Of a stretch of 64,000 bases of DNA, positions 10,874-58,406 are shown in pieces. The stretch lies in assembly GCA_958009085.1 (NCBI GenBank), contig OY253684.1, positions 806,001 through 870,000 of the forward strand, read 5' to 3'. Source of the DNA: Protoeuglena noctilucae. Its lineage: Eukaryota. The notes beneath the pieces were generated by a model. That model was given only the letters and a program-made list of their open reading frames with translations, ran no database searches and was not told the DNA's origin. The stretch's first letter is position 1; the number at the start of each line of letters is the position of its first letter. Made by a program: the position numbers and the translations under genes.

Positions 10874-13800
10874 ATGCTGAGGAGTGTCGGCAAGAGGGCC
10901 TTGAAGGTGATCACACAGGGGCATTGACGGCCGCATCGCCCGATAACTGCTCAGCGTCCCTGTGGGCGCGCGTGGAGAGCGCTGGTCGCCACTTTCGTGC
11001 CTGGGCCCCACGCAGGTCGGCCTCTGGATTGGGGGCCTGGCCGCGCTCGGCCACGTCGTGGAGCGCTACCAGTTCGCGAAGACGACCAAGCTGCCCAAGG
11101 CGTTTGTACTTGACGTCGACTTTGACGACCACCAGGGTGCGCGCCGCCCGCTGCGCCATCGCGGTGCGAGAGAAACTAGTGCTCTCTACTTGCGACGCCA
11201 CTCGGTGTCCCCGTGCGCGCAGTGGTCGAGACGGCTCCGAGCAAGGTGGAGCAGATTTTCAGGCCGAGCAAGAAGTACGAGCTGCGCAGTCTGCTGGAGC
11301 ACATCGCCGCGGCGGGGAACGACAATCGCGTCAAGCTGCTGGAAGGTGCAGGCGGGGGAAACCCGGGTAGACTAGGCGGGCGTCTCTCGTTTTACGCTTT
11401 GCAAACACCAGCGTTTCTCCTCGACTCCGCAGTGCGCCTGGGCCTCGGTGCGCCGAAGGTGTCCGGCCTCGCGACCATCCAGGACATCCGCGACGCGATC
11501 CACGCGTTCCGGGACGCAGCGGGCGACCGGGGAGCCCTGGCCGTCGCCCATGCACAGAGCTACGGGGGCGCGGCGAACGGCACGCCCGCCTATCTGATCG
11601 CCTCCGCCTGTGACAAGGTGCGTGGCGATTAGCACATACATGCTGGGCCACCGCATCACCCAGCACACGCACCCACCCCCATACCCACCACCCACACTCG
11701 ACACCCCACCCCACTCTCCCTCGTTCTCCACCCCCCCAGGTGTGGGTGATGCCCACGGGCCGCCTGAGTCTCCTGGGCGTGGCATCCCAGCAGGTCTTTG
11801 CGCGTGGGTTGCTGGACAAGTACCACATTGAGTTCGTATGTGCCAAGCGGCGCGAATACAAGAACGCCGCCAACATGCTCACGGAGGCGAGGGGGCGTGT
11901 GTGGTGGTCGTTGCATTGTGGTTGTAGCAGCGTGCTTGTCAGTTGTAGCTGACCATGCGTGCTCACGTGCTCACGGAGGCGATGGGGCATGCGTTCGTGA
12001 CTTATGTGTTAGTTGGACTGTACACCCGCACCCACACCCACACTGCCACCCACACCCACACCCACACCCACACCCACACCCACACTCTCACCCACACCCA
12101 CACTGCCACCCACACCCACACCCACACCCACACTCTCACCCACACCCCACACTGCCACCCAAACCCACACACACAGCACCCCCACCCCCCATTCCCGCAG
12201 ACGGGCTTCACGAAGCAGCATCGCGAGGCGACTGAGCACATCCTGCAAGAGGCTTACACGCTCATCTGCGAGGCACTCCAGTCGGACCGATCCCTGCGCC
12301 AGCGGCTGGTGTGGTGGGCGATGCGGGAGGCGCCGCTGAGCGCCGCGGACGCTCTGCGCTACGGCTTTGTGAGCGAGGTGGTGGCGGCTTCGGATGTTAC
12401 AAGGAAGCTGGTGGACGCGGCGCATGACGGCATGCGGGGGTGGGTCAAGCGGGAGGCGAAGAAGGACGAGGGGGAGCTTGCGCAGGGGTGGGAGAAGGTG
12501 AGGGGCTTGGGAGGGTGCATGGGGGTGGGAGTGCGCATGCTTGGTGGGAGATGGTGGGAGGTGGGACGAGGCGATGGGGGTAAGTGATGGCAAACAGTGG
12601 AATCACGCGTGGGTACTCATAATTACAATAACGTTATAAAGCAGTTGGTATAGCAGTTCGCATCAACCTCCCCTTTCCCATCTCCCCACTCAGGTGGTGG
12701 ACGCGGTGGTGGATGCCTCAACCATCGGTCGCGTGTCGCTGGGTCGCTACATCAAGGCGTGCATGGCTAAGGAGGCACAGGCGGACAGGCGCTTTGAGAG
12801 AGAAGAGGCCTGGGGGCAGCTGCGGAAGGCGGTGGGCGAGGCGTGGGACGAGGTGTGGGGTGCGAGGGAGGGTGGGGAGGAGGGGGCGGAGGGGTTGAGC
12901 GGGATCAAGAGGGAGAAGGGGAAGCTGCCTTTGGGGGAGAGCGAGGAGGCGGGCAAGGGGGCGGAGAGCGGTGGGGAGGGGGCCAAGGCGGCGCCCACGC
13001 ACACGACGGTGGCGGTGGTGACAGGTGAACGGTTGGGGTTGGTGGGGTGATGTGGGAGTGGTTGGAGTGGTGATGGGTGCATGGTGGGTGTGGGAGTGGA
13101 AGGCGTGGTGACAGGTGCGGGGTGGGGGTGGTGGGGTGATGTGGGAGTAGTGGGAGTGGTGACAGGTGCGGGAGTGGGAATGGTGGTGCGTGTGGTGGGG
13201 TGCCGTGCGAGTGGTGGCGGTGGTGACGGGTGCGTTTGGTGTATGGGTGGTGTGAGAGGTGGAATGGAAGGTGCGTAGCTGAGAGTGGTGTTGACTAAGA
13301 CGATGTCTTAGCCGCGAACACCGTCTCTCCTCCCCCGCAGCTGCCGGCCCCATCTACGACGGTCGGAGGAGCGAGACGCAGCGGCAGGGGGCGGGTGTGT
13401 ACGCGGCAGACTTCGTCAAGACGCTGGTGAGCGTGGGTGGATGGGGGTATGTGCACGATGGTGGCTTTGTATGTCAGGGCGCTAGTTAGCGCAGGTGGGG
13501 GTACGTGCATGACACACCACCCCTCTCATTCCCGTTCTGAGATATCATCAATGCCTCAAATATCATCAACAACTCGTGCCTCACCCCCGCAGAGCGATGT
13601 TGCCAAGGACGAGTCGGTGTCGGTGGTGCTGCTGCGGGTGAACAGCCCCGGGGGGTCGGCCGCCGCGTCGGAGCTCATCGCCAGGAAGATACAGGAGATG
13701 AAGTGAGCAATGGGGATGGGGGATGTTAGTTACTGAGCCAACCCACTTCCCTCTTCTCGTCTTCCCTACCACGCCGCCACCCCACGGCGCTACCACAAGC

Positions 13801-15226
13801 CACCCACCCCGCCCCACCCTACACCCACACCACCCCACATCACCCCACACCCCTCCAAACACCTCCCCACCCCCAGGGCGTCCGGCAAGCAGGTGGTGGT
13901 GTCGATGGGCGACCTGGCAGCGAGCGGCGGCTATTACATCTCTGCGTTCGCCGACCGCATCTACGCCCAGCCAGGCACGCTCACGGGCAGCATTGGGGTG
14001 ATTGCGGGCAAGTTCAATCTGGAGGGGTTCTTGAACAGGCAGGGCGTGAAGGTGGAGACGGTCGACAGATACGGGCCCAACGCGGCCGGGATGAGGTGAG
14101 GGTTTGGAGCGAGTGGTGGAGGATGTGATTGTTGTTATCACATCTCGTGCATTCAGACTTGCGGATGTCATCCTCGCCACCCACTTTGCACCCCACCTTT
14201 CGCTTGCCAACCATCCCCCCATGCCACCCCATCACCCCTCACCCGACACCCCCCTCCCTCCCCCCCAGCGCCCTGTCCGGCTTCACCCCCGCCCAGCGCC
14301 GCGCCTTCGAGCGCACTGTCGACGAAATCTACGACCAGTTCAAATCCGTCGTCGCCGAGGGCCGGAGCGTGCAGCCCTGGCGCGTGGAGCGGCTGGCCCA
14401 GGGCCGAGTGTGGCCGGGCAGGGACGCCCTGCGCCTGGGAATCGTCGACGAAATCGGGGGATACTGCGCGGCGCTCGAGGACGCGCGGGGTCGCGCGCTC
14501 GCCGCGCTGCGGGCCGCGGGGGCCCCGGGCGCCGCCGTTTCTGACGTCCGCATCAGGGCGTACCCCGGGGCAAGGTCCCCGGTGGGGGAGCTGCTGCAGG
14601 GGCGGGAGGAGGGCGGGATTGAGCGGGACTTGGGCCGGGGGACGCCGCGGGAGAGGCGAGAGGAGAAGAGGGCGGCCAAGGGGTGGCTAGGGTGGGGCGA
14701 GCGCGTGCTGGGGGCGGCGTGGGCGGTCGGGGTGGTGCTGGGTATCGTGTCCGAGGTGGAGGTCGGCGGGGTGCGGTGCGGCGCGGCGGGGCTGGCGGAT
14801 GTGGCGGCGGGGGCAGTGGGAGCGGTGGCAGCGTGGGCGGCAGGGGCGGCGGGGGTGGCGGGGAGTGGGGCGGGGGATGTCGACCCCGTGATGCGAGGTG
14901 AGCGGTGGGAGTGTGTCTGCGTGTCCGCGACTGCGTACACACGCTGCCAGTTGCACTTGCCATACTACCTCCCTCATATCGCCTTGTCAACTTTTGTGTA
15001 AGCGTCTTCCTATCATGCCAATCTCTTTCTCATATCGACATCTTCCTAATCCGCAGAGGCCCTGTCCCGTGCGGGCCCCGAGGCTGCCCTGGTCTACGCG
15101 GCATGGCTGGCGTCGGGTCTGCCACGCCCCACCAGCCTGCAGCAGTGGGCAGTGCTGGCGGGGCAGCCCATGGCGCTCAGCCCGGGAGCGGAGGGGCTGG
15201 CGAGGGCGGCCGCGGGGCTGGCGTGA
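10874..15226 (+). CDS. sppA: Signal peptide peptidase SppA (protease IV, peptidase S49), long two-domain type, organellar
   Basis: Motifs [86 protein letters not shown]. The N-terminal domain contains [11 protein letters not shown] and EYKNAANML. About 10 introns. Confidence 0.93.
12021..12190 (+). repeat. (CCCACA)n-type minisatellite at the 3' end of an sppA intron
   Basis: More than 20 imperfect CACACC units directly upstream of the acceptor at 12200. Confidence 0.9.
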
Positions 15227-15332
15227 GGGGTGGGTGTGGCGTGTGGGGTTGGGGCTGGCGTGAGGAGTGGGGCTGGCGTGAGGGGCGCATGGGCGTTGGC
15301 CGCCCTCACACCCCCCCACGTCCCCTGACCGA

Positions 15333-15337
15333 TGTAA
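15333..15337 (+). promoter_or_regulatory. Candidate TGTAA polyadenylation signal of sppA
   Basis: TGTAA about 107 nt after the stop codon. UGUAA is the known chlorophyte poly(A) signal, but a 5-mer match is weak evidence. Confidence 0.35.
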
Positions 15338-17752: not shown

Positions 17753-18151
17753 CGCGACTCCCGTAGACCACGTTTCCTGATGGCAGACGAGTAAGAGATG
17801 GACTGCCGGCAGGAAGGCGCCCGGGCTTGGACAAGGGCTCCCCCTCGGGACACGACCTGACCGCGTCAGTGTAGGACCGGTCGCGATGCCCAAGCGGTGT
17901 TTTACGCCGTCATGACGCCGCGAAACCGGTCAGAAGCATCCAAGGAATAGGATCGCTGTTCAGGCCAGGCAATCGGAGCGCTTTTAGCCACCGCTTGGTC
18001 GGGGCCTTCGCTTTCGACCCGCTGTCCGCTCGCCCCGGATCCGCAGCGATCTCCGCCGTTGGAGGGCCGAGCGTGAAACACGCAGCGAGCCGGCCGCTGT
18101 CCTTTTTGGGTCAGCCAAGCATTGGAGGCGGCCGCGTCTGGTGGCCATAGA

Positions 18152-21781
<3,630 letters not shown>

Positions 21782-41600: not shown

Positions 41601-44600
41601 GAGCCGTGAGCTCGTGTCCCTGTGGGCAGACGACTACCTCCCAGCGCTCGCGTTGATGAAACGCATATTCCCACCGGGGCTGGTGCGAATGCTCACGCCC
41701 GCATCCGCCAAGCGCGGCAAGGGGATGGGGGTGGCGGTGGGGGTGGGGGCGGGGGGTGCGGGTGCAGGTGCAGGGAGTGGTGGCGTGGGAGGTGTGTCTG
41801 GGCTGGCGAGGGTAAGCACCAGTGCGCCCACGCAGCCGCAGATGTCGCGGGGGGTGGGTGTGGCAGAGGGGGTGGCGGGGAGTGCGATGGGGGGTGCGAC
41901 TGTACAAGCGGTGGGGGGGCCGTTGTTGCAGCCGGGTGGCATTGCTGGGGAGGGGGCGGCTGCTGCGGGTGCCGGGGCGAACGGCGCGGCTGCGGGGGTG
42001 GAGGGCGGCGCGCAAGTCGCAGCGCAACAGCAACAGCCACAGCCACAGTCGCAATTGCAGCCGCACACCATCCCACCCCCGCCGTCACTGTCGCTGCCGA
42101 CGGCCCCGGTGCAGGCGGGCGTGTCGCGTCTCTCCCCCCTCATGCGCACCGTTCGCGGGATGCAGCTCCCGCGATCACTGGACGCCTCCCCCCAGGTTTC
42201 GGGATCGATCCCCGCCGGCGCCCCTTTATCCCCCCGCGCCCCCTCGCGCGGCCCGGGGAGCTTCAGCGGCGGCGCGGCGCTGGAAAGCGAAGATTCAAAT
42301 ATCGTGGACGTGTTTGGGGATCTTTTGACGTGCGACTGGCGCGCGTTCTGGCATGCGGTGGATGGGGAGCATGCGGGTGCGGCGCTGGTGTGGGGGCAGC
42401 GGTGTCGCGGGGAGCTGGGACAGGCATTGGAGGCGGAGATGGCGGGGCTGAGGAGGGCGAGGGAGAGGGTGGCGCAGGTGGGTTGAGGTGGGGGGTGTTG
42501 ATGGTAGTGGGGGATGCAAGGGTGTGTTGGGTTGTGTGGGTGAGGGAGAGGGTGGCGCAGGTGAGGGGGTTGCGGTGGGGGTGGTTGTGGTAGTCGGGAG
42601 TGTGGGGTGGGTGTGGGGTTATGGTGGGTGTGAGAGGGAGGGTGGTGCAGATGGTTGTCGTGGGTTGTTGTAAAGTGGGGTGGGTGTCGTCAAACTGCTG
42701 CAGTGCTGCGCTTACTACATGCCAAGCGTCGCTGACCCAGCCCCTCATTCAACAACCACTTCTCTTTTTCAAATTCCCATCCTGCTCTTTCAAATCCCCC
42801 CCCCCCCCCCTCTCTTGCAGGGCTCCGGCTCCTGGCCCGCCTGGAACCACGAGGAGTTCTCGGTGCATTACCCCTCCCTGGCGCAAGAAACGTGCATCGG
42901 GGGCGTTTATGCCAAGTACCTGATCGACCCCCACCCGGACGCGGCACAGCACGTTATGGATATGGGGCAGCCCAAGGACTTCTTCCATGCTTGCTTCCAC
43001 CGATTCCTCACCGCGGACCTCGCGGGCAGCGGCGATCGGGCGATGGCAATGGCCGACGGCGGTGGTATGAGCAGGGGTGGCGGTGCAGGTGCGGGTGCGG
43101 ATGCGGGTGGCACTGTGGGTGTTACTACGGGCATTGACGGGCAGTCGCATTCGCATTCGCATTTCGCAAGCGAGTCGGCAACAGCAGCGGACGCCGAGCG
43201 CGTGCTGTGCCTGCGGTGCATGGCGGCCGTGTACCGCCAGTGGGCCTCCGATATTGGCGCATTCGAGGGCACGGCTCATATGGTGCGAGTCGCCGATACC
43301 GCCACCACCCGCGCGCTCCGCCACGCCGCTTTGGAGTTGATTGAGGCGCTCACCATGCCAAGAGGGTCGCGAGCACTGACGGGTGCAATGGCGGCGCTGG
43401 GGGTGGGAGCGCACGCCCCCCCGCCCCCCGCACACGCGGGAGAGGGGGATCGAACCTGCGACGCGCCCGCGTGGATGCTCGCGCAGGCAGCCGGGGCCGT
43501 GGCTGTGACGGGGGCAGCTGCCGAGCGTGCCAGCCGTGCATCGGCTGCCAACTGCGCGGCTGTGATGGATGCGGGGGGTGTGGCGGTGCTGGTGGGCGCG
43601 GCCTGCATGGCGCATGGGATGCGGGAGCAGGGGGGGCAGGGCGCGGCGGGGGCGGGGGTGGGCATGCTGGCCGATGCGGCGTTTGTGGAGCCGCCTCGGT
43701 TGTGGCACGTGAGGGTGGGGGCGAGGGTGGCGGAGGAGGCGAGGCGGCGGCTGGGGCTGCGGGCGGTGGGTGGGGGTGGGAGTGGGGAGGACGAGGGTGG
43801 GGAGCTGAACACTGCGGGAGGGGGTGCGGGTGCGAGTGGCAGCGTGGATGGTGGCAAGGCGTCTACAAGTGCTGCTGCCCCCCCCGCATCCCAGCCCGCG
43901 ACCTCAGATAGCAAATCCCAACAAGGCGATGGGCTGGTGGAGGTGGGCCCGTTGCTGCGCGAGGAGTTGCTTCAGTTGGCGCAATGGGGATTGGTGAACT
44001 ACAACACGTGGGTGTGGGCGAGGGACATGCCTTCCCCGAGTGTGTTTGGGGATGTGCGGGAGCTGCGGTGGGCGGCGGCGGTGGGGGGTGGGTCGCTGGG
44101 GGCGGCGGGGGAGGCGATGCTGGCGATGCGGGTGCTGACGGGGATGGCCACCATGCACAGGCGAGGGGGGGGGGGGGGGGGGGGGGGGGTGATGATAATA
44201 ATCATGATATCGTGAGTTGCGAGGGTGTTGCTGCCGCATGGTTGGCGTTGCGGGTGCTCATATTTATCATCGCTCACAACGTCACTCATATCTCTGTCAC
44301 CATTTCTCTCACATACCACCCTTCTCTCATACACCATCACTCCTACATAACATAACACACCAGCACAACTCTCTCCCCACCCCCCCAGGGCCGTCGACGC
44401 GGATGGCTCCGCGCTCCACCCCCTCTCACTCACACAGCCACTCACCTATACATCGCCATCTCACTCACTCACTCACTCACTCACTCACATATCCCCCTCT
44501 CTTCCCCCTCCAGGGCCGTGGATGCGGATGGCTCCGTGCTGCACCCACTCCCCCGCGCCCACCGCCTTTTGACCTCCCCCACCGCACTGCCCCACATATG

Positions 44601-47600
44601 CCAGCTCGTGCTCACGCGACACCCAGCCATCGTGGCAGCGGCCGCCAGGCTGCTCTATGTGGTGCTGGAGCACAATGCCCAAGCGCTGTCGCGGTGAGAT
44701 GGGTGGGGTGTTTGTGTTGGGTGATAGAGGGGGGTGATGGAGGGTGGTAATGCCTGGGGGTAGTGGGGGGGTGGCGGAGGTTGGGAGGTAGTGTGGGGTG
44801 GTAAGTGAAATGGATGTGGTGAAGATTGCAACTGTTCGCTGTGTACTATCACTTATTCTATGCATATCTATCACGTACTGCCAATATCACATATATTGGC
44901 ACACACACACACACACACACCCACCCACACACACACACACACACAGTCCATCTCAATTACTATCTATCTCAATCACTATCTATCTCAATCACTATCTATC
45001 TCAATTACAACCCTCTCCTTCCCAACTCAGCCTGTACGCGACCGGCTTCTTTTACTTCGCTGTCACGCACCTGGGCTCGGACGTCGCCGATCTGGCGCGC
45101 GTGCTGCGGCTGTCGCACCTGAGTCAGCGATTTAGGGGGGAGGCCGACGCGCGACAGGGGCCCGCCACGCCCCTGGGGCAGAGGTCGTACCTGGGGCACG
45201 TGCTGCCGGAGGCGAGTGGCGTTAGTATCTACTGATTGTTCGGTATGGATCGCGATGTTGTTATTTATCGCTAAATGCATGTGGCTGGGATGGGTGGGCT
45301 GTCTGTGCCCCCGTGGCAAAGGTCGCATCTCCGGCTCGGTTGCCCATATATCTATGTTTGTCATCAACATAATATACATAATATACACGATAAATACTCC
45401 CCCGCCCCCCTCCCCCCCCAGTCTTTGATCTATGTGCTTGAGCACGGCACCCCCGATGCCTTCTCGGCCGCTCTGTGTGGGGAGCACGACACGCCAGAGC
45501 TGTTGTGGACGGAGCGCATGAGGAGGGGGACGCTGCAGCCGCAGGTGACGGTGATGTATTTGAATATATCGATTGGCAGTAATTATAAGCAGATGAGTGA
45601 TGATGTGTGAGGATATAGCTGGCGCAGACGCGTGCGGATGCCATGGTGGGGTTTGGTATGTATACATGCAATCCCACATTCAAACGACGTTCAATCAACT
45701 CTCAATCGACTCCCACACCACCCCACCCCCCAGGTGTCCCAGCATCTGGGTCTCTTCCCCCTGGTCATCAAGCAGCGGCATCAAGCAACGTACGACTACA
45801 CCCCACTCCCGCCCATCGCATACCCGGACCTGCAGGCGAGTTGGGAGGGGAGGGAACGGGGGAATGAGTAAGTATTATATTATATTAGTTAATATAGTGG
45901 TAATAATACTTGGGATCGTATGCTGGGCAGGGGTAGTGTATGGGGGTAAATAATTCAGTAAGTATTGTAGCGATTACTGCAGTGGTAATTATACTGGGGA
46001 TCGTATGCTGGGCAGTGCGTCGGATGTGTGGGATCCGGTGCCACCGCTGCTCCTCTCGCCCCTCACACACACATCAACACCCCCATTCACCCACCCATCC
46101 GCACCCATATCACTCCTACCCCTCACAATATGAACACCCCCAATCACTTACACCGAACCCCTTGTCTAACTCACAGGGCGAGATCTGGTGCCACCGCTAC
46201 CACCTCCGCAACCTCTGCGACGAGCGCCGGTTCCCCGATTGGCCCGTGGTGGACCACTTGCGTGTGCTGCAGTCACTGATGGGGCTGTGGAAGCAGGAAC
46301 TGGCGAAAGAAGGGCCCGGGATGGGGGAGGAGGAGGCGATGCGAGTGATGGGAATAACGAGGGGGGAGGGGGGGGAGTGGCCGGGGGCCGAGGCCGTCAG
46401 GCGGGCATACCGCGCCAAAGCGAGGGAGTGCCATCCCGATCGGTGAGATGGGGTTATGGGGTGGGTGTTGATGGGTTAGATGAGTATGCGAAATTGAGTG
46501 GATGGGGAGCGCGTACAGTTGCGGTCACACACCCACCATTGCCCACCCCAGCCTCTCTCACATTCCCTCTCCCGCACTCCCCCACTCTCCCACCCCCCCC
46601 TCCCCTCCACCCCCGCAGCAACCCCGGCGAGGACGCCGCCGATCGATTCGCCGCCCTGCAGCGAGCCTACGAGTACCTGCAGGGATCTTTCAATGCCAGA
46701 AACGGGGCGGGCAATGCGGGCACTGCCCCCGCCTATGGGCCCGACCCCTCTCGTCTGCTGCTGGTGCTGAGGGCGCAATGCGTGCTGTACCGGCGATACC
46801 CCAAACAGCTGTCGGAATTCAAATACGCGGGGTATCCCATGCTGCTCAGGGCCGTGCAGGTGAGGGGTGGTGGATGGGGAGATGATGTGCGCTTGCTGCT
46901 GTCGTTGCTGTGACCACCGCTGCTTTCGATACCCCCACTGCCACCCATGCCACCACCCCCACCCCCACCCCCACTCCCACCCATATCACCACCCCTACTG
47001 CCACCTTTACCGCCACCCCCACTGCCACCCATACCACCACCCCTAACATCACCCCCCCCACCCCTACACAGGACCACATGCGCACTTCCGCCCCCCTCCA
47101 CCCCACCAGCCCCGGCCACCCCCTCGTGCAATCCTCCGCCGAGCTGTGCTGGCTCACATGCGCCGCGTCTCCCAGGTCAGGACTCGAACTCGTGAGGTGC
47201 GGGGGGGTGCCGTTACTGGCGGAGGTTCTGGCGAGGGCGATACCCGCGTTGAGTGGGGAGGGGGAGGAGGCGAGGGGGGCGGCGGAGTTGGCTGCAAATG
47301 CACTGCGGACGTTTGCGGGACTGGGGGTGTACGATGCGGGGAGAGCGGAGGTGCTTAAACGGTGGGGGGTGGTGTGCGACATTGTGCGGGGCTGTGGGGA
47401 GGGCAAACACCCTGCAGTTGCGGACGCGGCTGTGGCTTGCGTGGGGGCGCTGGCGGGCAGCCCTGGGTTGCAAGCGGCGTTGGTGGCGGCGGGGGCGTCG
47501 TGGGTGCTGATACCGTTATTGTTTGCGTATGATGCGGGGGCGGGTGGGGATGGTGCGGACGTGGCTGCTGCTGAGAGGATGCTCAGCTTGCGTGCGAGGG

Positions 47601-50600
47601 GGGTGCAGGGTGCGGGGGCGGTGGGAGATGGGGAGGGGGAGGGGGAGGTGGATGGGGCGGAGAACCCCGCGCTGGTGCTGGGGGCGCTGGGGGCGCAGAG
47701 GGCGAGCATGCAGGTGAGAGTGATGGGAGTGGGTGGGGTGGGATGTGTGTGGGTGTGTGTGTGGGGTGGGTGGGTGAGAGTGAGCATGCAGGTGAGGGGG
47801 AGAGGGAGGTGGGGTGTGTGTGGGGTGTGGATGCGTGCACAGTGGGTTTAAGCACCTCTCATTATACCCCTCTCCTCTCACCCCACCATACCCACTCATC
47901 CCATCACTCACCATGCCCTCACCATCCCCTCACCGCCCCTCTCCCCCCCAGGCCGCCCGCAACGTGCGTGCCATGCTCGCCGCACGCGCACTGGCGAGAC
48001 TGGCGGGGCTGATGGGGCGGGGAGGGCGATTTGGCACATCCCCGCTACCGCCACTGCAAGATGCGCTAAAAGCGCTGCTCACCCCTTACCTGGCGGGGCG
48101 ACTGGCGGAGATCGACCCGAGGGGTTTTCTGGCAGACGCGTGCCAGAGTTGCGAGCGGCCGCATCTGATCTGGGACGCGGAGATGAGGGAGGGGGTGGGG
48201 GAGGTGTGCGGGGGAGCGATGGAGGTGAGATGGGGGGGTGAGGTGGAGATGGGGTGGTTGTGATTGAGTGGTGTTATAGATGGGGTGATGGTGATATACG
48301 GGGAGTGGTTGAGGGGTAATGAGGGTGACCTTTGCTTCTTAACCCATCCCCACACTCCCACTCACCGCATAACTCACCCCCCACTCACCCCAACCATCAT
48401 AACCCCCTTCCCCCCCCCCGCAGTCCCTCAACCTGCAAGAGCCCCCCTTCCTCCCACCCCTCGCATCCCAGCCCCCCTCCACCCCCCTCCCGCCCCCCGC
48501 CCTCGCGCACCTCACCGCCACCCTCGCCCCCGCCCTCTCTTTCCACCACTCATCCCTGAAGCACGAATTGGTGATCGCGGGTGTGTACGTTCGCGTGTAT
48601 AACGCGCAGCCTCAACAGCCCCTCTTCGACGCGGCCACGTTTCTGGCAGAGACTCTGGCACAGGCGGCGTTTCTGGCGAGGGCGTACCTGCAGGCGCGGG
48701 GGCTGTGGGTGCCGGCGCTGCTGCCGCGATTGCCGGCGGAGGGGGCGACGAGGGCGGGGCAGGGGGGGATGGGGGGGTACATGCCAAGCGTTGCGCCGGG
48801 GATGGGCGGGAGGGGCGGGGGTGCGGGTGCGGGTGGGGTTGCAGCGAGGCAATCTGTCAAGAGCGAGGGTGCGGGTCCGCTGGAGCAGGGAGGGGAGGCG
48901 GCGGCTGCGGGTGGCGCGGCGGCGAGTCGCAGAGAGGCTGCGTGGAGTGCGGGGGATGAGGGGCGGCTGCTGGCGTGCTTGCAAGCGGCGGCAAATGTGG
49001 TGGGTGGCAGCCCGGGCTTGGCTGTGCTGGCGGCGGGGAGAGCGACGGTGGCGGCGCTGCTGTGGGCGATGCAGGCGGCGGTGGCGGCGGGGGTGGGGGG
49101 TTGTGAGGGCAACGGGTCGGTGGCAAGTGGCGGTATGGGGCATGCATTGAGGGACGGGGGGGCTATCGGCACTGCCACTGCCACTGCTTCTGCCAATGCG
49201 GGTTCGCCCTTTGTCAGCAGCACCACGAATGTAGCGGCGGGGGCGACATCGGTGGGCGGTGCATCGGCGGTGGCAGTGACGGCGTTTGACGCCTCTCTGT
49301 GCCTGGCATCTCTGCGACTGATGGCCCAATTGGCTGGCCACCCCAAAGGAGCAGAGTCGCTTGGTTGCGAGGCGGTGGTGTGCCGGCTGATGTGGCTGGT
49401 GCACCGACCGCCCACCCCCGCTTGCCGCGATCACTGCTTGCGGGTGCTGGGGGCGCTGGCGGGGCGGCCGGCCGTGGCCTTTTGCGCGGCAGAGCAGGGC
49501 GGGGCGCTCATGCTGCTGTCCGCAATCATGCCGGGATCGGAAGCCGCTTACACGCTGGGTGGAGGGGGGGCGGGTGTGGGTGGCAGTGGGGGTGCGGGAG
49601 AGGGGCAGAGTGCGGGGGTCACTTCAACAGCGGCCACTACTGCTGCGGGCGCTAGGAGTGACGCAGCAGCTGCGATGACGAGGGAAGCACCGACAGCAAG
49701 CGTAACAGGCAATGACAGCGCAAGCGAGGACCGGCTGCGTGTGGCGGCTGCTTCTCTGCTGGGTAGACTGGCGCAGAGCGGGGCCCACGGCTCCCGCATC
49801 GTCGCTGTGCTCTGCGCTGTGCTGCCTGCGGGCATTGTCGATGCGCTGAGGGACGGGCCGGGGGAGGCGGCGGTGGGGGTGCTCGAGGCCGTGTCGGGTG
49901 AGCAGTTGATGTGTGGTTATATCGATATCATATGTGTTGGGTTAGGGTTTGGGCAGGGGTTGTAATTGGTTGTGACTGTTGAAGATAGTGTTGCTGTGGT
50001 GAGTGGGTGGGTGGGGGAGGCGGCAGTGGGGCGCTCGTGGCCGTGTCGGGTGAGCAGTGGTTGCAACGATGATACCATTTATATTACTGTTATTCCGTAT
50101 GGTATGGATGTTGTCAATACGGTACGAATCGATCATTATATGTCGTAGCGACTGTAATAATAACAGATGCAATGATAAATAACAACAATACTACTATCAC
50201 TGTATGTGCTTGCTAATCAACTCCCACTCATCCTTCCCCCCTTTCAGAGACCCCCGAGCGCGTGTGGAGCCGCGCCATGCTGAGCCGCGCCTCGTCCGCC
50301 GTTTCAAATCTCTGCGCATCGGCACGCGCCCAGCAGTGGCGGGCGATGGCGGCGGGGGGAGGGGCGGAGTGGGCGCCGGGGGCGGGGGGTGCGGTGGAGT
50401 TTGAGGAGCTGAGGGGGGAGCTGCAAGTGGGGGGGGTGTACGGTGAGTGAGTGGGGGGAGCTGCAAGTGGGGGGGGGTGTATGGTGAGTGAAGGGGTTGG
50501 GGGTTGCACATGTGGGGGGGGTTGTACAGTAAGTTAGTGTTATGTATATATTTATTCTGTCGTCTGTAGTAGATATGTATATTTGTATTATTTGAATTCC

Positions 50601-52240
50601 TCCCTTCCACCCCCACCCCCACCCCCGCAGTCCGCCTCTTCCTGAAGGACCCCCGCCACCCCCTCCGCGACCCCCGGGGCTTCCTGCAAGCGCTGCTGGA
50701 CGCGCACCTGGCATCGGCAGCAAAGGTGGTACCGATCTCGAATTCAAACAGCGTGGGGAGAGGAGCAGCGGGGATGGGGGGGATGGGGCCTGGGGCGGCA
50801 GCCGAGCGTTGCGTGACGCTGGGGGCAGCAGCCGTGGCGCTCATGCAGGTGAGGGGAGAAAAAGGGATTTGAATGTTGTGCGAGTTTAAATGGCAGTTAC
50901 ATGTAAGTGGGGCTGAGGGGTGAGGTTAGTGGAGGGGTGCGTGGGTGGGTAGCGCGGGTGGCGTGGAGCGCCCGTGTCACTCCAAACACTCTAGCGACCC
51001 ATAACATGGCCCAATTGATGACCCTTATCATGTCACATCATCCCTCAATCACCCTCACCCCTCTCTCCCCCTCTCCCTCACCCCCAGGTCCACCCCCTGC
51101 TTGCCGACGCGTCTGCCTCCACCGCCGCCCCCTCTCACCTCCTCTCTGCGCTGCTCTCCGCCTGCCACCTGCTCGCGAGGGGCCCGCACGCCCCGCTGCC
51201 ACCCGACGTGAAGAGGCAGGACGTGGTGGATGTGGCGGGGAGCGTGTTGCGCATCACACACCTCATGGCAGGTGAGGGGGTGGGGGAGTGGGTGAATGTG
51301 GGGGGGAATGGAGGGGTGGGATTGAGCAAAAGAGGGGGTGAGGTGAGGTGAAAGATACTTCACCCATTCTTCATTGCACACCACTCTTTGTCCCTCACGC
51401 AACGCACCACTCCCCCTCACTGATCGCCCACACCCCACACCATCACACCATCACACCATCACACCCCAGAGGGGTGTCCAACACCCCTCTCTACCCCACT
51501 CCCCCCCCGCAGTGTCCCTCGCCTTTGCCGAAGCATCTCCGACCACCACCCCCCCCGCCCTGCACGCCCTCGCACCCGCGCTGTCGTGGGAACGCGGCGC
51601 GCGCGTTCTGGCGCTTGAAACCATCAAGCGGTGCCTGAGGGCCGACAGCCGCGCGAGGGACGCGGCGGTGGGGCAGGCTCTGGCGATGAAACTGCCAGAG
51701 AGGCTGCTGCGAGCGCTGGACTGGCGGGGGGGTGCGGGTGCGGGTGCGGGTGCGGGTGCGGGTGCGGGTGCGGGTGCGGGTGCGGGTGCGGGTGCGGGTG
51801 CGGGGGCGGGTGCGGATGAGGCGCGGAGCAGCGATGGGGGAGTGGAGAGGGTGCTGTGGTGAGTGATGGGGAGATGGGATAGGATGGGGTGGTTAGCAGG
51901 GGTGGTAGTGGTGATGGGCAGCGATGAGAGACGGGCATGCTGCGCGTTACTCCCACCAATTCTGATAACTGTATCTCATATCCCTCATCTACCCCCCTCC
52001 CCTTCCCTCCCTCCCAGCATCGACATCCTGCGGCTGCTGTCGCTCCCCGGCGCCCACCACACCGCCGTCCAGTCCATCCTCGATGCCTCTGACGTTTGGG
52101 GTGCATACCGGGACCAGCGTCACGAGATGTTCTTGCCGGGCGCCGAGGACCGGCAGTCGGGGGTGGTGGGGCTGCTGACGGGGGGGGAGGTGGCGACGTT
52201 TGCGCTGCCGGCCAAGGAGGGGGAGGGGGCTGCGCAGTGA
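35603..52240 (+). CDS. DNAJC13: RME-8 / GRV2 / DNAJC13 endosomal J-domain protein (more than 25 introns)
   Basis: RFVVTKHSWKGRYQRIFC, WNHEEFSVHYPSL, GEHDTPELLW, EIWCHRYHLRNLCD, J domain VRRAYRAKARECHPDR|NP, FKYAGYPML, ELVIAGVYVRVYN, ELQVGGVY|VRLFLKDP, VWGAYRDQRHEMFLP. Confidence 0.96.
40064..40165 (+). repeat. (GGTGTG)n array at the 5' end of an RME-8 intron
   Basis: GGGTGT-type repeats start at the donor at 40064. This is the reverse complement of the CACACC arrays found at intron 3' ends. Confidence 0.85.
44900..44945 (+). repeat. (CA)n microsatellite in RME-8 intron
   Basis: Interrupted CA dinucleotide run. Confidence 0.9.
51730..51812 (+). repeat. Coding (GGTGCG)n repeat encoding a Gly-Ala run near an RME-8 exon 3' end
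   Basis: About 13 GGTGCG units translated as GAGAGA... Confidence 0.9.
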
Positions 52241-52741
52241 AGGGGGGAGATAAGGAGTCGAGTAAATGAGAATTGGATATGGGAGACGGTTAAAATGAAA
52301 GGATTGGGATGGGATGGGGATTCGGTGGGGGTAGGGGTTGGATGCAAGGCGGAGAGTGTAAAGATGAGACATGAGCATGCGCGTACCTGTGCTGAAGAAG
52401 ATGTTATGTTTTTGAAGAGTGGGAGTGTTTTCTTGTAGCCAACACCCATTGTCTCAAATGCGGTCTGAGCTAGCAGTCGAGCGCCGCTTCCTCTGCCATT
52501 CATCGCCTGCCGTTGAACGCATCCGCTGGCGGGAACGTCACGGCTGGCACAGCGATGCTGCCACTGCTTCACACACGTCTCATTCACGACAGCAGGTTCC
52601 CCAGCAGGCACAATTGTTTGCATGCACCCCATCCCAATCGAAGTAATGACTCTCGGCAGCTGCCATCACTTCACACACCTCCGTCCCCAATCAAAGCAAG
52701 GAGTCTCTGCAGATGTCATTACTTTGACACGTACATCCCAT

Positions 52742-54473
52742 TCACGATAGCAGGTTCCTCAGCAGCCTCTCCGCTTCCTCGAACTCTAGCGATTTCCGCT
52801 CTGTTTCCGACGCATGCGAAACGTAAGACTGCAGGAAGCGGATGCCCTCCTGGGGGGAGGGAGGGCACGGGGGTAAGGGATAAGAAGGGATAAGAACGAA
52901 AGGACGAGTAGGTAGTGAGAAGGAGTTACAACTTCGTTTTGTAAATGGGCGAGTGATGGTGCAGCTGGGCAAGCGAGCTCGCAAGCTGCGTCCCATGCAT
53001 CATACCCCGCATTCTCACCTGCGTGCTGCACCCTTCATCTCCATCACCATGCATATCCCATTCACCTGCGTGCTGCACCCCTCGTCCTGCACCATGCAAA
53101 TCCCCACGTCCCTGACCACATCCATCGATGGAAAGGCGTACGCCAAAACGCGACACGCCTCCAAAGCCTCACGGTACCGGCCAGACGCTGCAGGGGGTGG
53201 GGAGTGATGAGATGAGAATGAGAACGGTTGATGACATGGCCAGGCGCACACCCTACCTCACACCCACAGCCACCACCCCCCTCCTCGCATGCACCCCCTC
53301 CCTCGCATGCACAACCCCCCATCTCTCCACCCACACACCCACCCTCACCCATGGCTACCACCCGCATGGCATCCACAACGCGATACACGAGTTCCTCTCC
53401 CCCCATGGCCACCGCATTCCTGGGGGCGTCTGCCGCAAAGAACCAGGGATACCCCACGTCGAGCACCGTCTCCAGTCCGGGGGCTTCGTCGCCCATGACG
53501 CGGGTTCGAATCATGACGTGGTGGGGCGCGCCGGAAAAGGACACGGCCTCGGAGGGCACGCAGAGGCGCGCGAGGGCGTCCAGGGCGATGGCGGCGCACA
53601 GCATGTGGGACGCGGCGCCGGTTTCTGGCAAGCGGTGCAGCAGCCAGTGATCCAGGACCTGCAAGGGAGGCGACAGTGGGCGGTGGAGCTGGGGAGGAGC
53701 TGGGGGTGGGCAGTGGTGGGTTGGGTGCGTGCGCATGCGGGGAGGTGGGAGCAGTATATAGTGGGGGAGAGAGACACATAAGAGACAAAATAGAACCATC
53801 GACATTCGCCAACCCCCCACCCCACCTGCAGCTCGTCCACCTCCCTCTTGATGTCTACCCTCTGCATGACGGCGTTGTTGACCGCCTCCACCACCTCGTG
53901 ACCCATGCCGCCCTTAGCCTTGGCGGCCATCTCGGGCGCCCGGGACACCAGCCTGCGAATACGATAGAAATGGTTAAGAATTTGGCACACGCACACATGG
54001 CCGCGCGCCGGCCGGCACTGCGTCACGCACAGCATAGCACGTCCCGCACCGCTTGCAGATGCCGCGCACGTCCTCCAGCAGCTCGCCCACGTCCTCCGTG
54101 CTGCCCACCACCTGCCTCCCGGCCAAGAGAATCGCCTCCAGCACATCTACGGAGCCAGATTGCACCATCTCGCGCACGCGCGCAGCGTCCCCGTCGTCGT
54201 TCGCGTTGCCGAACGCGGGCAGCGATTTGAGGACCTCCGAGGCCCCGCCGTCTTCCTGCGAGTCAGCTACGTGCGCTTCGTGGCTTCGACCGGCCACAGA
54301 CAGGCGGCGAGGCCACGCTCGCGAGCAGAACGCACCGGGATGGCCCTGGCTCGGCGCAGAGGGGGGCGATGCGCGGTCCACCGCGCGCGCATCATCGACG
54401 CAGTGTGTGCGATCGGCCTGCGCTGCACCCCGTGCGCCCATCGGCACACGGGCGAATGGATGGGCGCGGACAT
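52742..54473 (-). CDS. SirB1-like (transglutaminase-like core + TPR) protein, probably organellar
   Basis: VVEAVNNAVM..VLDHWLLHR..LCAAIALDALARLCVPSEAVSFSGAPHHVMIR..VLDV, then helical GRYREALEACRVL..VVRDVGICM..EGIRFLQSYV. Clean spliced frame; family assignment is by eye. Confidence 0.6.
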
Positions 54474-54807
54474 GGTGCGGCTGTGGATGTGCCTGCCCGG
54501 AGCGCCCTGGCGTCACGCGCGATGTGCTGCTCGCAGTCGCAAACTTCGAGAGAGTCTGCTATTAAGCCGCAATAACTCTCCGGCGCGCGAAACTGCTGGG
54601 AGCCCAGGGGAACCCAAGTCAGACGGGAAACGCGAGCGAAAGCGCCGGCCTTCGAGCCGATGCCGCATCTGTGCGTGACCCTCTGTCCTGATTGTTCACG
54701 CTGCCTGTCCTTTGCGGCGAGAAGAGGACCTCGTTGGGGGCGCGGCACGGCGTACGAGCTCCCTCTGCTTTCCCACGCGGGGCTGAGGTGGATCCCGAGA
54801 AGCGAAG

Positions 54808-57800
54808 ATGCTCGACATCAACGCATTCCGCGTAGGTGACGCACCCGCTCTTTGCCGGGCATTTCCAGCCCTCCGCGCAGAGCCTTGCGTGTCTGCGACG
54901 GACTCTGGCCTTGCAGCGAGCTCTGATGGGGGGCTAGGACCGGGGACTGCGTGCGGCACGCGCCGGATCTCGACACGGCGGGCGCGGCATGCATGGCTCA
55001 ACCGACCACGGCGGCCGTGGCCCGGGGCTTGCGCTTGCGGGCCCGTGCGCACCGCGAGGCGCGCCTTGCGCATCTTCCTGTCGCGTGACAGCTCTCCCCC
55101 CGCCGCGTCGGTCCCCCGCGCCTCCAAACAGGCCACTGCAGGGGCGCGCAGCGTCGTCCACGTGCCCCGCCGCGACCGTGCGCGCCCCAGCGCCGCGCGG
55201 CCGGCCCTGCGCTCCGCGTCTTCAATCGCTGCGCTTCCGCTCCTCGCGCTCCGCAGACAAGGGCGGCGACCCCGAGAAGATCCGCGAGTCGCAGCGCCGG
55301 CGCTTCGCGGACGTGGGGATCGTGGACCGCGTGATTGATCTCGACGAGCAGTGGCGGCAGGCGACGTACGATATGGGTACGTACTACAGCGCGAGGGCAA
55401 AGCGGCTGCCGTCGCATGCCGGCCGCGCTGCTTTGTGTTTTTTCCAGAGTGGGCGCGAATGTGCTCTCCGCGCCCCCGCTGCGCGCAGAGAGCGCCAAGC
55501 GCGAGGCGAATCTGATTTCGAAGGAGGTGGGTCGCAAGAAGAAGGCGGGCGAGGACACGGAGGCGGAGCAGGAGCAAGTGCGGAAGCTCAAGGTCACGAT
55601 CGCCGAGCTGGAGGACAAGGCCAAGGTGAGGAGATGGGATGAGATGGGATGTGTGGCAGGCTGTGAATGTTATGGTTACTGAGCTGCAGGACACGGCCAA
55701 GGTGTGATGAGATGAGATGGGATGGGATGGCATGCACTCAACACGCCGTCGAGTTTGCGACATCCCGACTGCAGTACCGCTGCACCCGCACCCACCTCAC
55801 TGGCACCCGCACCCCCACCCTCCGTCTCACCTGTACCCCCCCTCACCCCACCCCACCCACCCCCACCTCACCCCCACCTCACCACTACCCCCCACCACCA
55901 CCACCACCTCAGTCCCTGGAGTCTGCCCGCAATGACCTGGCCGCCCAGGTGGGCAACTACGTGCACGAGTCGGTGCCCGTGTCCCAGGACGAGGCGATGA
56001 ACGCCGTGGTGCGCGAGTGGGGGCAGCCGCGGCAGGACGCCAGGCACAACCACGTCGACCTCGTGCAGATGCTCGGCATTGCGAATTTGGACCAGGGAGT
56101 GGTGAGTGGGAGCGCGGGTGTGTGCTCGCAGTGCAGATGCTAGCGATTGCCAACGCCTTCCTAGCGCCCTTCCCAACCTCACCCCACCACCGCACCCCCC
56201 CCCCCCCCCCCCCCCCCCTCCCCAACAGACGGTGGCGGGCGGCCGCGGCTACTACCTGATGAACGAGGGGTGCCTGCTCAACCAGGCGCTGGTCAGCTAC
56301 GCCATGGCGTTCCTCTTCAAGCGCGGCTACACCCCCGTGCAGACGCCCTTCTTCATGCGCAAGACCATCATGGCGCAGTGCGCGCAGCTGAGCCAGGTGA
56401 AGGGGGTGGGGGGAGTAAATGAGTAAGTGAGGGAGTGAGTCAGGGAGTGAGTCAGGGAGTGAGGGAGTGAATGAGCATTATGGCGCAGTGCGCGCAGCTG
56501 AGCCAGGTGAAGAGAGAGGGGTGGATGGGGAGGGGAGGGGTTGGTAGTGATGGAAGCGAGGATCAATGTTTCTGACACACCGTTTCTCCTCTCACCCTCA
56601 CTTTGGCATCGCCCGTCCCAAGTAACTCACCGCAGTTCGACGGCAAGCTCTACCACGCGACCACTCTCACTCACCTCATTCTCACATCCCCATGTCTCAT
56701 CTTATTTTACCACACCCCCCACCCCAGTTCGACGAGGAGCTCTACCACGTGAGCGGCGAGGGCGAGGACAAGTACCTGATCGCCACCTCCGAGCAGACCC
56801 TCTGCGCCCTGCACCTGAACCAGTGGGTGGAGCCGCGCGAGCTGCCCATCAAGCTGGCGGGGTACTCGACGTGCTTTAGGAAGGAGGCGGGGTCGCACGG
56901 CAGGGACACGCTGGGGATATTCCGGGTGCACCAATTCGAGAAGGCGAGGGGGCGATTGGGATGATAAGAGATGGTTGGGAATGGTGTGTGACTGGGTGAC
57001 TGGTTGTGTGGTTCATTGGGTGAGTGGTGTGTGACTGGTGAGAGGTGAGGGGCAGGATGGGGATAGTCGAAGTGCACCAGTTTGAGAAGGCGAGGGATGA
57101 TGGGGGGGGGGATGAGTGAGTGATTGTGGGGTGTGTGGTTTGTGATGCGATGCGGTGCGTCAAGTGACGTGCGATGAGCATCGAACGGCCCCCATGCAAT
57201 CTCAACCTGCCTCGCTTCCCCTCACACCCTACCACTCTCACCCCCACCCCCACCCCCCTTTCACCCAACGCAGGTCGAGCAGTTCGTGGTGGCCCACCCC
57301 TCACAGTCATCCCCACAACCACTCACCCAATCACTCTCACTCTCATTCTCACTCTCATTCTCACTCTCACTCTCACTCTCACTCTCACCCACCCATCACC
57401 CCCACCCCCTTACTCAAACACAGGTCGAGCAGTTCGTGGTGGCCCACCCCGACGAGTCGTGGCCGCTGATGGAGGAGATGATCGGCAACGCGGAGGCCTT
57501 CTACCAGTCCCTTGGATTGCCCTATCGAGTCGTCAACATCGTGTCGGGGGAGCTCAACAATGCGGCCGCCAAGAAGTACGACCTCGAGGCGTGGTTCCCG
57601 GGGGGCAAGGCGTACCGGTGAGAATTGAGATGGGGTGTTTGTTAGTATAACTATTACAAGTAGTAATAGTAGCATTACTTGTGTGTACCAGTACGACCTG
57701 GAGGCGTGGTTCCCGAGGGGGAAGGCGTACCGGTGAGAGTGGTAGTTGATATGAGTAGATGTGATGGTTAGTGTCTGTAGTGGAGAGCGATGGTGGTGTT

Positions 57801-58406
57801 TGCGAGTTGTTGTCACTCCCTCTCCCATCACATCGCAGTGAGCTCGTGTCTTGCTCCAACTGCACCGACTACCAGAGCCGCAACCTGGAGGTCCGCCTCC
57901 GCACCCCAAAGGCCCCCGGGGCAGAGCAGCGGAAGGACTACGTCCACATGCTCAACGCCACCATGACGGCCACGGAACGCACGCTCTGCTGCCTGCTTGA
58001 GAACTACCAGACGGAGGTGAGAGAGAGGAGGGGTTAGCGATAGCAGCATAGTACACTAGGTGTGATGGTGGTGGTGATAGTAACACTGACTGTGCTGCCT
58101 GCTTGAGAACTACCAGACGGAGGTGAGGGGGTTGGTAGTACAAGGGGATAGCAACAGTTCGGCTGTTCTCACATAATGTGATGGCCCCTGCGCTATTAAA
58201 GACCCATTGCAATGCCTTATCTTAGACTTACAATTCACCTGACCCCTCCCCTTACCGCCCAGAACGGCGTGGTGGTCCCCGAGCCCCTGCGCCCCTACAC
58301 GTGCGGGGTCGAGTTCATCCCTTTCCGCAAGGAGTTCGACAAGAACGGCAAGCTGGTGGACAGGGCCGCGCCCAAGCCTGACGCGTCCATGGGGTCGGTG
58401 AACTGA
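54808..58406 (+). CDS. SARS1: Seryl-tRNA synthetase, cytosolic
   Basis: [108 protein letters not shown]. Confidence 0.98.

Follow-up and report, generated by a model that had tools for sequence, protein, structure and literature searches.

Most introns in a 64-kb stretch of a marine protist genome (Protoeuglena noctilucae, assembly GCA_958009085.1, contig OY253684.1, positions 806,001 to 870,000; 65% GC) open with a long G-rich, C-free tract and close with a long C-rich, G-free tract. Hereafter this stretch is called the window, and positions are given in its own coordinates. The 39 introns examined were mapped blind to base skew, 16 of them from RNA contigs, 13 by a profile of the RME-8 gene, and 10 by Pfam or reading-frame anchors (Table 1). 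Our favoured explanation, which we hold to be somewhat better than an even bet, is that the tracts were built by duplication of splice junctions together with slippage, and that splicing constraints kept their polarity.

Introns open G-rich and close C-rich

The GC skew, (G - C)/(G + C), of the 5' third exceeded that of the 3' third by a mean of 1.27 in the first 14 RNA introns, versus 0.00 +/- 0.14 in random intervals, and none of 5000 such intervals reached the observed value. A G-skewed 5' third was combined with a C-skewed 3' third in 37/39 introns, two of these 37 (54836-55256 and 55377-55488) being near zero, and 21/39 passed a strict cut (5' third >= +0.5 and 3' third <= -0.5). At least three GGG in the first 40 nt together with at least three CCC in the last 40 nt were found in 22/39 introns, and the reverse arrangement in 0/39. 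By chance, either arrangement is expected in 5.7-5.9% of cases, whether random intervals or random GT..AG intervals are taken.

An earlier note on this DNA, made from the sequence alone, had described a skew wave locked to the splice sites, and a metagene of 28 introns bears this out, along with the 37/39 skews and the 22-to-0 polarity. In the first 30 nt of the intron, G was 0.50-0.57 and C 0.06-0.07 (skew +0.76 to +0.81), and at -30 to -11 before the 3' splice site C was 0.53-0.65 and G 0.03-0.05 (skew -0.87 to -0.90), with base composition stepping sharply at both splice sites. The AT-richer core of the earlier description exists, but it is found between positions -70 and -31 relative to the 3' splice site (GC 0.47-0.50) and not at the exact centre of the intron. 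The note had also reported that the pattern flips with gene strand. This is uninformative, because G...C is its own reverse complement, and the + strand reads G then C for genes on either strand.

The 5' tract consists of 60-150 nt of G runs mixed with T (GGGTG, GTGGG, GGGGT) and is nearly free of C. As in G-run intronic splicing enhancers, a class that involves binding proteins of the hnRNP F/H type, G triplets cluster within about 70 nt after the donor, with GGG runs in the 5' half and 3' half numbering, for example, 11/0, 10/0, 16/5, and 17/3. In the 3' tract, also 60-150 nt long, C runs are accompanied by A or T (CACCC, CCCAC, CTCAC); G, and therefore AG, is almost absent. Window-wide, the median gap from a G segment to the next C segment was 21 nt (43/49 within 150 nt), and that from a C segment to the next G segment was 159 nt, which corresponds to the intervening exons. 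Complementary repeats thus co-occur across introns and not across exons.

In every gene whose intron order is known (5/5), the one or two leading introns had weak tracts or none. The pattern-free proximal introns were SerRS introns 1 and 2 (both RNA-verified), sufS introns 1 and 2, and the S16 intron; weak ones were 53953-54049 in the gene at 52-54 kb and RME-8 intron 1, in which the G side is weak. These proximal pattern-poor introns were more evenly GC-rich (GC up to 0.78). The assignment of the wave to "distal" introns in the earlier note was thus apt, as the exceptions are the 5'-proximal introns. We consider it slightly more probable than the opposite that G-then-C tracts are the usual architecture of the introns of this organism beyond the first one or two per gene.

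Complementarity of the intron halves reflects composition

The earlier note proposed that the two halves are mutually complementary and that their pairing defines the introns. In silico, the complementarity is a consequence of composition, with no matched pairing. Duplexes between the first and last 80 nt of the same intron averaged -54.9 kcal/mol versus -53.3 kcal/mol for non-cognate combinations (28 introns; permutation p=0.19, mean z -0.05). In the same test, pairs of flanking exons reached -60.0 kcal/mol, and random 80-mers of the window gave -47.3 +/- 15.6, a spread that includes the cognate value; 5'x5' and 3'x3' duplexes were weak (-28.4 and -7.9). The native fold did not beat within-half shuffles in 13/14 introns, the exception being 51272-51512 (z=-5.0), and swapping the halves cost no stability, the swapped introns being level with the native ones or marginally ahead (-150.1 vs -148.6). 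The note had listed a lack of excess pairing between native halves first among the findings that would speak against its proposal, and such a lack is what we found.

Functional bridging might nevertheless be generic, with the G and C tracts zipping into a G:C (U:A, G:U) helix that joins donor and acceptor and partly replaces recognition of a U-rich polypyrimidine tract. Several results are in line with this. Relative to whole-intron mononucleotide shuffles, native introns gained about 13% in stability (-95 vs -84, p=3e-7), their structural end-to-end path was shorter (12.4 vs 15.0; p=0.01, 26/37 introns), and in the minimum-energy folds of three introns most of the paired bases of the 5' third had their partner in the 3' third (60/72, 74/75, and 31/37). 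The 5-mers of the first 100 nt mirrored the reverse complements of those in the last 100 nt (rho 0.43; same-sense -0.10), and the fish precedent for bridged introns likewise involves generic, non-cognate repeats (PMC4691745). However, the gain in path length is small, the native halves have no advantage over non-cognate, shuffled, or swapped ones, and the polarity is opposite to that of the fish class, in which AC repeats lie on the donor side and GT repeats on the acceptor side. In addition, human LCAT intron 4 was spliced intact after loss of a possible G:C stem (PMC2481429). Taken together, we regard bridging as unlikely.

The clearest folding effect in silico was local, in that both splice-site regions were open in a co-transcription-like window. 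With 60 nt of exon and 90 nt of intron, the probability of being unpaired at the 5' splice site was 0.52 in native versus 0.33 in swapped introns (p=3e-5, 28/35), and that of the last 35 nt was 0.74 versus 0.44 (p=1e-8, 33/35). The ends of the introns barely fold on themselves: per nt, the self-fold energy was -0.169 kcal/mol in the 80 nt at the 5' end and -0.060 kcal/mol in the 80 nt at the 3' end, whereas flanking exons reached -0.304 and random windows -0.286. A canonical G4 motif was present in the 5' half of 13/28 introns.

The 3' tract is a C-type polypyrimidine tract

All 39 acceptors were CAG. The last 40 nt contained C 0.52, T 0.23, A 0.18, and G 0.07. The earlier note was right that the tract is not U-rich, but with 75% pyrimidine it still counts as a polypyrimidine tract, one of the C type. 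Going back from the 3' splice site, the first AG was reached after a median of 82 nt (range 1-188, n=37), and AG was depleted after allowing for local base composition (observed/expected 0.59). CTRAY branch motifs were rare, and CTCAC-type words were enriched (18/37 introns).

A perfect TACTAAC, the yeast-type branch consensus, was observed at 37964-37970, at the G-to-C switch of the 542-nt intron 37771-38312 and 343 nt upstream of its acceptor. Three internal acceptor-like copies (...GCAG|CCCAAC) are located between this motif and the acceptor.

Tracts consist of repeats and duplicated junctions

Tandem Repeats Finder and self-BLAST showed that the tracts are imperfect micro- and minisatellites along with short local tandem duplications. 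The repeat units included (GGGTGT)n, (GGGTGC)n, (CA)n, CTCA, and C-rich units of 12-48 nt. The top 5-mers were GGGGG, GGGTG, and GTGGG. Counts of mirrored 5-mers at the two ends were 83 for GGGTG vs 59 for CACCC and 53 for GGGGT vs 54 for ACCCC. Both halves hence contain the same kinds of repeat, oriented as the position of each permits.

Copies of the introns' own junctions were sought with ungapped 30-nt probes (18 exon and 12 intron bases), the threshold being the 99th percentile of non-cognate comparisons. The donor junction (exon end plus donor) was copied inside its own intron in 14/39 cases and the acceptor plus exon start in 4/39 (13 and 3, respectively, when 37 introns were used), and two SerRS introns carried both. 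The junction echoes of the earlier note are hence real, and they resemble plain tandem duplications; the note's suggestion that G4 or R-loops seed them found no support. The copies lay 40-120 nt from the source junction. At 50443, the junction falls within a tandem array of three 41-nt units (50413-50539), of which the first donor is used. Wherever else RNA showed the choice, in the RNA-verified 42478, 49898, 55626, 52850 (- strand), and 44513, the outermost site was likewise the one used.

Because the echoes are near the junctions and the outermost site is used in RNA, we suggest that the introns grow inward from both junctions by tandem duplication and slippage. The 5' half would thereby inherit donor-side G-rich sequence and the 3' half acceptor-side C-rich sequence, and splicing constraints that read direction would keep the polarity. 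G runs after the donor may be tolerated or may act as intronic enhancers. C may be avoided near the G-rich 5' splice site, since it would pair with the donor. The 3' tract would serve as the C-type polypyrimidine tract and, in addition, as an extended AG-exclusion zone that probably reaches from a distant branch point to the CAG.

The same duplications could have occurred without any role in splicing, with slippage from the G-rich donor consensus and the C-rich acceptor region of a 65% GC genome leaving the long tracts as a pure by-product. The echoes and tandem arrays agree with this, as do the spliced tract-free introns and the lack of an energetic advantage of the native arrangement. The exons also bear the same gradient in the same sense, with skews of +0.16 to +0.39 over the 60 exonic nt before a donor and of -0.10 to -0.42 over the 60 nt that follow an acceptor (metagene), and with Gly/Ala peptides at exon ends and Pro/Ser/Thr at exon starts. 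However, duplication alone leaves unexplained why opposite-sense repeats are lacking in the wrong half. The tracts exclude the opposite base very strictly (C at 6-7% already in the first bins, G at 3-5% at -30 to -11), AG is depleted beyond composition, the forward arrangement occurs in 22/39 introns and the reverse in none, and the local openness of the splice sites is lost when the halves are swapped. We thus consider an origin without splicing constraints improbable.

The G...C layout is reverse-complement symmetric, as in terminal inverted repeats, and could in principle reflect a transposon-like "introner" family with G-rich and C-rich termini. Some tracts also had very high depth in metagenome runs. 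Three regions (36967-37633, 50974-51640, and 55643-56299) showed very high word depth in one metatranscriptome run and the DNA run, which likely comes from tract k-mers common to many loci or organisms and makes depth unusable there. In self-BLAST of the window, the introns shared only low-complexity repeat matches, and their arms lack specific complementarity. No target-site-duplication-like word was common to donor and acceptor junctions (cognate mean 3.8 nt vs non-cognate 4.1 nt), and the echoes are in tandem and close to their source, not at the opposite intron end. We therefore give such an origin hardly any credence, and an introner-type origin was rejected for the window given the absence of a shared sequence family, of a target-site-duplication-like match between junctions, and of cognate arm pairing.

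Several points weigh against duplication under splicing constraints as well. The data cover 64 kb of one genome and 39 introns, 23 of which are from one gene. The flanking exons carry the weaker version of the gradient given above, which could reflect a regional mutational process. The tract-free introns 54836-55256 and 55377-55488 are spliced (RNA-verified), and the architecture is therefore not required. AG exclusion has exceptions, since some C tracts contain internal CAG copies (e.g., three in 37771-38312). In the equilibrium fold of whole introns, native and swapped arrangements were equally open (5' 0.32 vs 0.29; 3' 0.41 vs 0.40), which limits the accessibility argument to local windows. 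The enhancer and AG-exclusion roles are ones that we only infer.

A stronger role for the tracts would be a G-tract/C-tract code by which most introns of this lineage are recognized and which replaces the U-rich polypyrimidine tract. G-run factors or G:C bridging would act at the 5' end, and at the 3' end a C-tract reader would scan an AG-free zone of roughly 80 nt. These tracts would also drive growth by junction duplication, and the duplications would leave nested decoy sites, obey a rule that the outermost site is used, and spill Gly/Ala and Pro/Ser into exon ends. We regard such a code as doubtful. The participation of G-run- and C-run-binding proteins would fit the precedent of additive G-rich and C-rich enhancers in human GC-rich introns (PMC2481429).

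GC donors and exon ends

GC-AG introns made up 8/39 of the mapped and 2/16 of the RNA-supported introns (36139, 40728, 44161, 45212, 45836, 25424, and 56944 on the + strand, 29665 on the - strand), and the donor was nearly always AG|GCGAG. These introns lean to a weaker G tract, with a 5'-third skew of +0.16 to +0.48 in 5/8 and -0.09 in one more. Donor usage of the Emiliania huxleyi type, with about 60% GC donors (PMC4028052), is unlike that found here, and pelagophytes have too few introns per gene to match the window (bioRxiv 10.1101/2024.10.30.620910). A 25-nt homopolymer G run (44165-44189) directly follows the GC donor of intron 44161-44513, and a homopolymer C run of more than 20 nt (about 56197-56220) precedes an acceptor.

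Exon ends beside donors lean towards Gly/Ala/Glu-rich low-complexity sequence, and exon starts after acceptors lean towards Pro/Ser/Thr-rich sequence (e.g., the exons starting at 48424, 47072, 41573, 39313, and 51513). A (GGGTGC)14 array at 51730-51815, before intron 51859-52017, is in frame and encodes (Gly-Ala)n. The low-complexity exon ends suggest that splice sites slid into former intron tracts.

Relation to known intron classes

The pattern is an extreme form of the splice-site-linked base asymmetry known from vertebrates. Splicing-coupled strand asymmetries, with skews locked to intron ends and distinct from transcription-coupled skew, are said to have been described by Touchon and colleagues in 2004, and those of animals and plants are reportedly far smaller than the skews found here (about +0.8/-0.9 over about 100 nt).

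The closest precedent is the human GGG...CCC introns. Of the highly structured human introns, 16% start with three G triplets and finish with three C triplets, and the gain in stability is only small (PMC4691745); G-triplet enhancers of short GC-rich introns were reported by McCullough & Berget (as cited in PMC4691745). Shared with the human class are the three or more G triplets within the first 40 nt, the three or more C triplets within the last 40 nt, and the GC-rich setting. A stability gain over shuffles, which in the window depended on the kind of shuffle, would likewise be only small. Unlike in the human class, the arrangement was found in 22/39 mapped introns as opposed to 16% of the most structured ones, the tracts are about 100 nt long, repeat-built, and nearly C-free (5') or nearly G-free (3'), and the host is a marine protist, not a vertebrate.

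In zebrafish (AC)m-(GT)n introns, complementary repeats bridge the intron ends (Lin et al. 2016, PMC4691745), a class marked by splicing independent of U2AF2 and by a need for the repeats in the correct pairing of splice sites. As in these, complementary simple repeats are found here at opposite ends of the same intron, across introns and not exons, and the complementarity is generic, not cognate. In contrast to the zebrafish introns, the window has GT-containing G-rich motifs on the donor side and CA-containing C-rich motifs on the acceptor side, its units are G-run and C-run motifs (mostly 5-6-mers) instead of dinucleotides, and there is no large stability excess.

G-rich and C-rich intronic enhancers can offset weak C-rich polypyrimidine tracts, and a stem-loop was tested there and found dispensable (Murray et al. 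2008, PMC2481429). Those introns resemble the ones analyzed here in being GC-rich, in their C-rich polypyrimidine tracts, and in having G runs and C runs together. They differ in that a few triplets upstream of the tract were shown by mutagenesis to act, whereas the long segregated tracts of the window are known from sequence. AG-exclusion zones whose branch points are distant (Gooding et al. 2006, PMC1431707) and the shaping of polypyrimidine tracts by AG avoidance (Yildirim & Vogl 2023, PMC10946897) have been described. The window likewise has a long AG-poor stretch before the 3' splice site with AG below compositional expectation, but its zone is C-rich, not U-rich, and sometimes contains duplicated CAG copies. 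In the literature searched, to which subscription papers and supplements did not belong, we found no description of this architecture in algae or haptophytes.

If the architecture is genome-wide, the organism would be a natural extreme of GC-rich intron definition and a system for studying how a spliceosome copes with C in place of U-rich signals. It could then separate G:C bridging from G-run- and C-run-binding proteins, and could reveal the way in which tandemly duplicated junctions make introns longer and remodel the ends of exons.

Genes of the window and mapping of the introns

Window DNA was present in marine metagenomes and its RNA in marine metatranscriptomes. Three RNA runs (metatranscriptome) and one DNA run were compared over 36300-56299. 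At least 14 intron-type GT/GC..AG joints were found in RNA contigs and none of these in the DNA run; the first 14 comprised 11 GT-AG and one GC-AG on the + strand and two GT-AG on the - strand. Two further introns (44161-44513 and 56102-56228) are RNA-supported, the former by contig pieces, the latter by a contig end and its continuation.

Most of the introns belong to an RME-8/DNAJC13-like gene, identified by Pfam RME-8_N at 35917-36141 (E=4.3e-16), by colinear profile matches to model positions 11-2227, and by tblastn with homologues of 2000-2700 aa. The profile was built from 27 homologues, and its colinear chain consists of 26 exon matches. Between adjacent matches, we chose the frame-preserving GT/GC...AG intron with the best score in a small splice-site matrix and the least extension. 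This rule ranked 10/10 RNA-verified RME-8 introns first (7/7 in an earlier trial) and provided 13 additional RME-8 introns. Nine introns in five other genes were obtained from Pfam-anchored exon pairs, and one more by direct reading of the sequence. This last one, 56397-56727, was entered as 56398 (one base short) in the 39-intron counts, skews, and folding tests. Of the example introns of the earlier note, 50443-50630 is RNA-verified, 21068-21261 and 47714-47951 are the top frame-consistent candidates, 40064-40381 is frame-consistent, and the one at 37771 ends at 38312, not 38311. For the intron at 40064, acceptor 40648 ranked first in a search whose extension limit left 40381 outside.

Table 1 Genes and mapped introns of the window. 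Gene assignments are based on Pfam scans of open frames and profile hits; skews are those of the 5' third/3' third of each intron.
Feature	Position	Strand	Type and mapping basis	Skew	Remarks
DDT/WSD/HARE-HTH gene	1.8-6.3 kb	-			
S49 peptidase gene	11.6-15 kb	+			
S49 peptidase intron	14096-14268	+	GT-AG, Pfam-anchored top candidate	+0.44/-0.90	G side weak, C side strong
SAM domain gene	about 16 kb	-			
MetRS gene	18.3-21.8 kb	+			
MetRS intron	21068-21261	+	GT-AG, frame- and Pfam-anchored top candidate	+1.00/-0.85	
Ribosomal protein S16 gene	25.3-25.9 kb	+			
S16 intron	25424-25754	+	GC-AG, Pfam-anchored	-0.09/-0.32	without pattern
sufS-like Aminotran_5 gene	28.2-30.5 kb	-			
sufS-like distal intron	28531-28786	-	Pfam-anchored	+0.47/-0.56	donor echo 28695-28724 (28/30)
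sufS-like intron 2	29321-29665	-	GC-AG, Pfam-anchored	+0.16/-0.35	without pattern
sufS-like first mapped intron	29858-29949	-	Pfam-anchored	+0.29/-0.09	92 nt; without pattern
Alpha/beta hydrolase gene	31.2-33 kb	+			
LRR gene	33.5-34.4 kb	-			
LRR gene intron	34059-34223	-	Pfam-anchored	+0.55/-0.64	
RME-8/DNAJC13-like gene	35887-52237	+			23 mapped introns; about 3 unmapped at 36.6-37.55 kb
RME-8 intron 1	36139-36363	+	GC-AG, profile-anchored	+0.19/-0.51	G side weak
RME-8 intron	37771-38312	+	profile-anchored	+0.77/-0.85	donor echo 37830-37859; 154-nt repeat x1.9 within C tract
RME-8 intron	38531-38855	+	profile-anchored	+0.75/-0.45	
RME-8 intron	39004-39312	+	donor anchored; acceptor from frame-consistent model only	+0.68/-0.65	
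RME-8 intron	39648-39916	+	profile-anchored	+0.73/-0.93	
RME-8 intron	40064-40381	+	donor anchored; acceptor by frame check	+0.94/-0.31	(GGGTGT)n array 40062-40167; donor echo 40199-40228 (29/30)
RME-8 intron	40728-41057	+	GC-AG, profile-anchored	+0.21/-0.93	acceptor echo 40902-40931
RME-8 intron	41280-41572	+	profile-anchored	+0.75/-0.96	
RME-8 intron	42478-42820	+	RNA-verified (contig joint in X7, X11)	+0.89/-0.67	
RME-8 intron	44161-44513	+	GC-AG, RNA-supported (X7 contig pieces 43825-44151 and 44511-44692)	+0.48/-0.71	acceptor echo 44377-44406
RME-8 intron	44694-45030	+	RNA-verified	+0.91/-0.96	
RME-8 intron	45212-45421	+	GC-AG, RNA-verified	+0.36/-0.73	C tract only
RME-8 intron	45545-45733	+	RNA-verified	+0.70/-0.81	
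RME-8 intron	45836-46176	+	GC-AG, profile-anchored	+0.78/-0.86	
RME-8 intron	46443-46618	+	RNA-verified	+0.92/-0.90	
RME-8 intron	46860-47071	+	profile-anchored	+0.28/-0.87	
RME-8 intron	47714-47951	+	profile-anchored	+0.91/-0.92	donor echo 47774-47803
RME-8 intron	48225-48423	+	profile-anchored; acceptor 48423 or 48471	+1.00/-0.90	
RME-8 intron	49898-50247	+	RNA-verified	+0.81/-0.40	donor echo 50032-50061
RME-8 intron	50443-50630	+	RNA-verified	+0.85/-0.57	echo 50466-50495
RME-8 intron	50849-51087	+	RNA-verified	+0.76/-0.77	
RME-8 intron	51272-51512	+	RNA-verified	+0.96/-0.72	
RME-8 intron	51859-52017	+	profile-anchored	+0.93/-0.93	
Unnamed gene	52.3-54.1 kb	-			
Unnamed-gene distal intron	52850-53065	-	RNA-verified (CT..AC joint in X7, X10, X11)	+0.63/-0.79	
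Unnamed-gene proximal intron	53953-54049	-	RNA-verified	+0.22/-0.60	pattern weak
SerRS gene	54.8-58 kb	+			
SerRS intron 1	54836-55256	+	RNA-verified	+0.01/-0.22	without pattern
SerRS intron 2	55377-55488	+	RNA-verified	+0.04/-0.07	without pattern
SerRS intron 3	55626-55912	+	RNA-verified	+0.62/-0.94	pattern present
SerRS intron 4	56102-56228	+	RNA-supported (contig stops at 56101, continuation matches 56229-56248)	+0.38/-0.94	long C run
SerRS intron 5	56397-56727	+	read from sequence, acceptor also top candidate; CAG|GTGAAG ... CCCCAG|TTCGAC preserves frame	+0.65/-0.66	donor echo 56490-56519; acceptor echo 56624-56653
SerRS intron	56944-57432	+	GC-AG, Pfam-anchored; acceptor 57432 or 57423	+0.76/-0.64	donor echo 57072-57101; acceptor echo 57271-57300 (30/30)
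SerRS intron	57618-57838	+	Pfam-anchored	+0.48/+0.19	G side only, no C tract

A search for homologous proteins returned only the window's own open reading frame and one distant protein, with no spliced transcript proteins, and a search of metagenome contigs for related loci gave no relatives. At the Rfam gathering threshold, no families were detected in the window, and no intronic snoRNA or known RNA family was present in the AT-richer intron cores.

Ordinary gene finders are expected to fail on such genomes, because the G- and C-rich tracts are open in all frames and contain decoy donors. An ab initio exon-chain parser (codon log-odds plus a small splice matrix) recovered 3/12 and at most 7/12 RNA-verified introns, and with a homology bonus 2-4/9 introns. 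Given this recovery of at most 7/12, the skew wave is a useful annotation signal.

Compared with the profile of 27 homologues, the RME-8 exons have long Gly/Ala/Val-rich low-complexity insertions at 41709-42325, 43000-43900, and 48700-49300, the exonic status of which was confirmed by RNA contigs.

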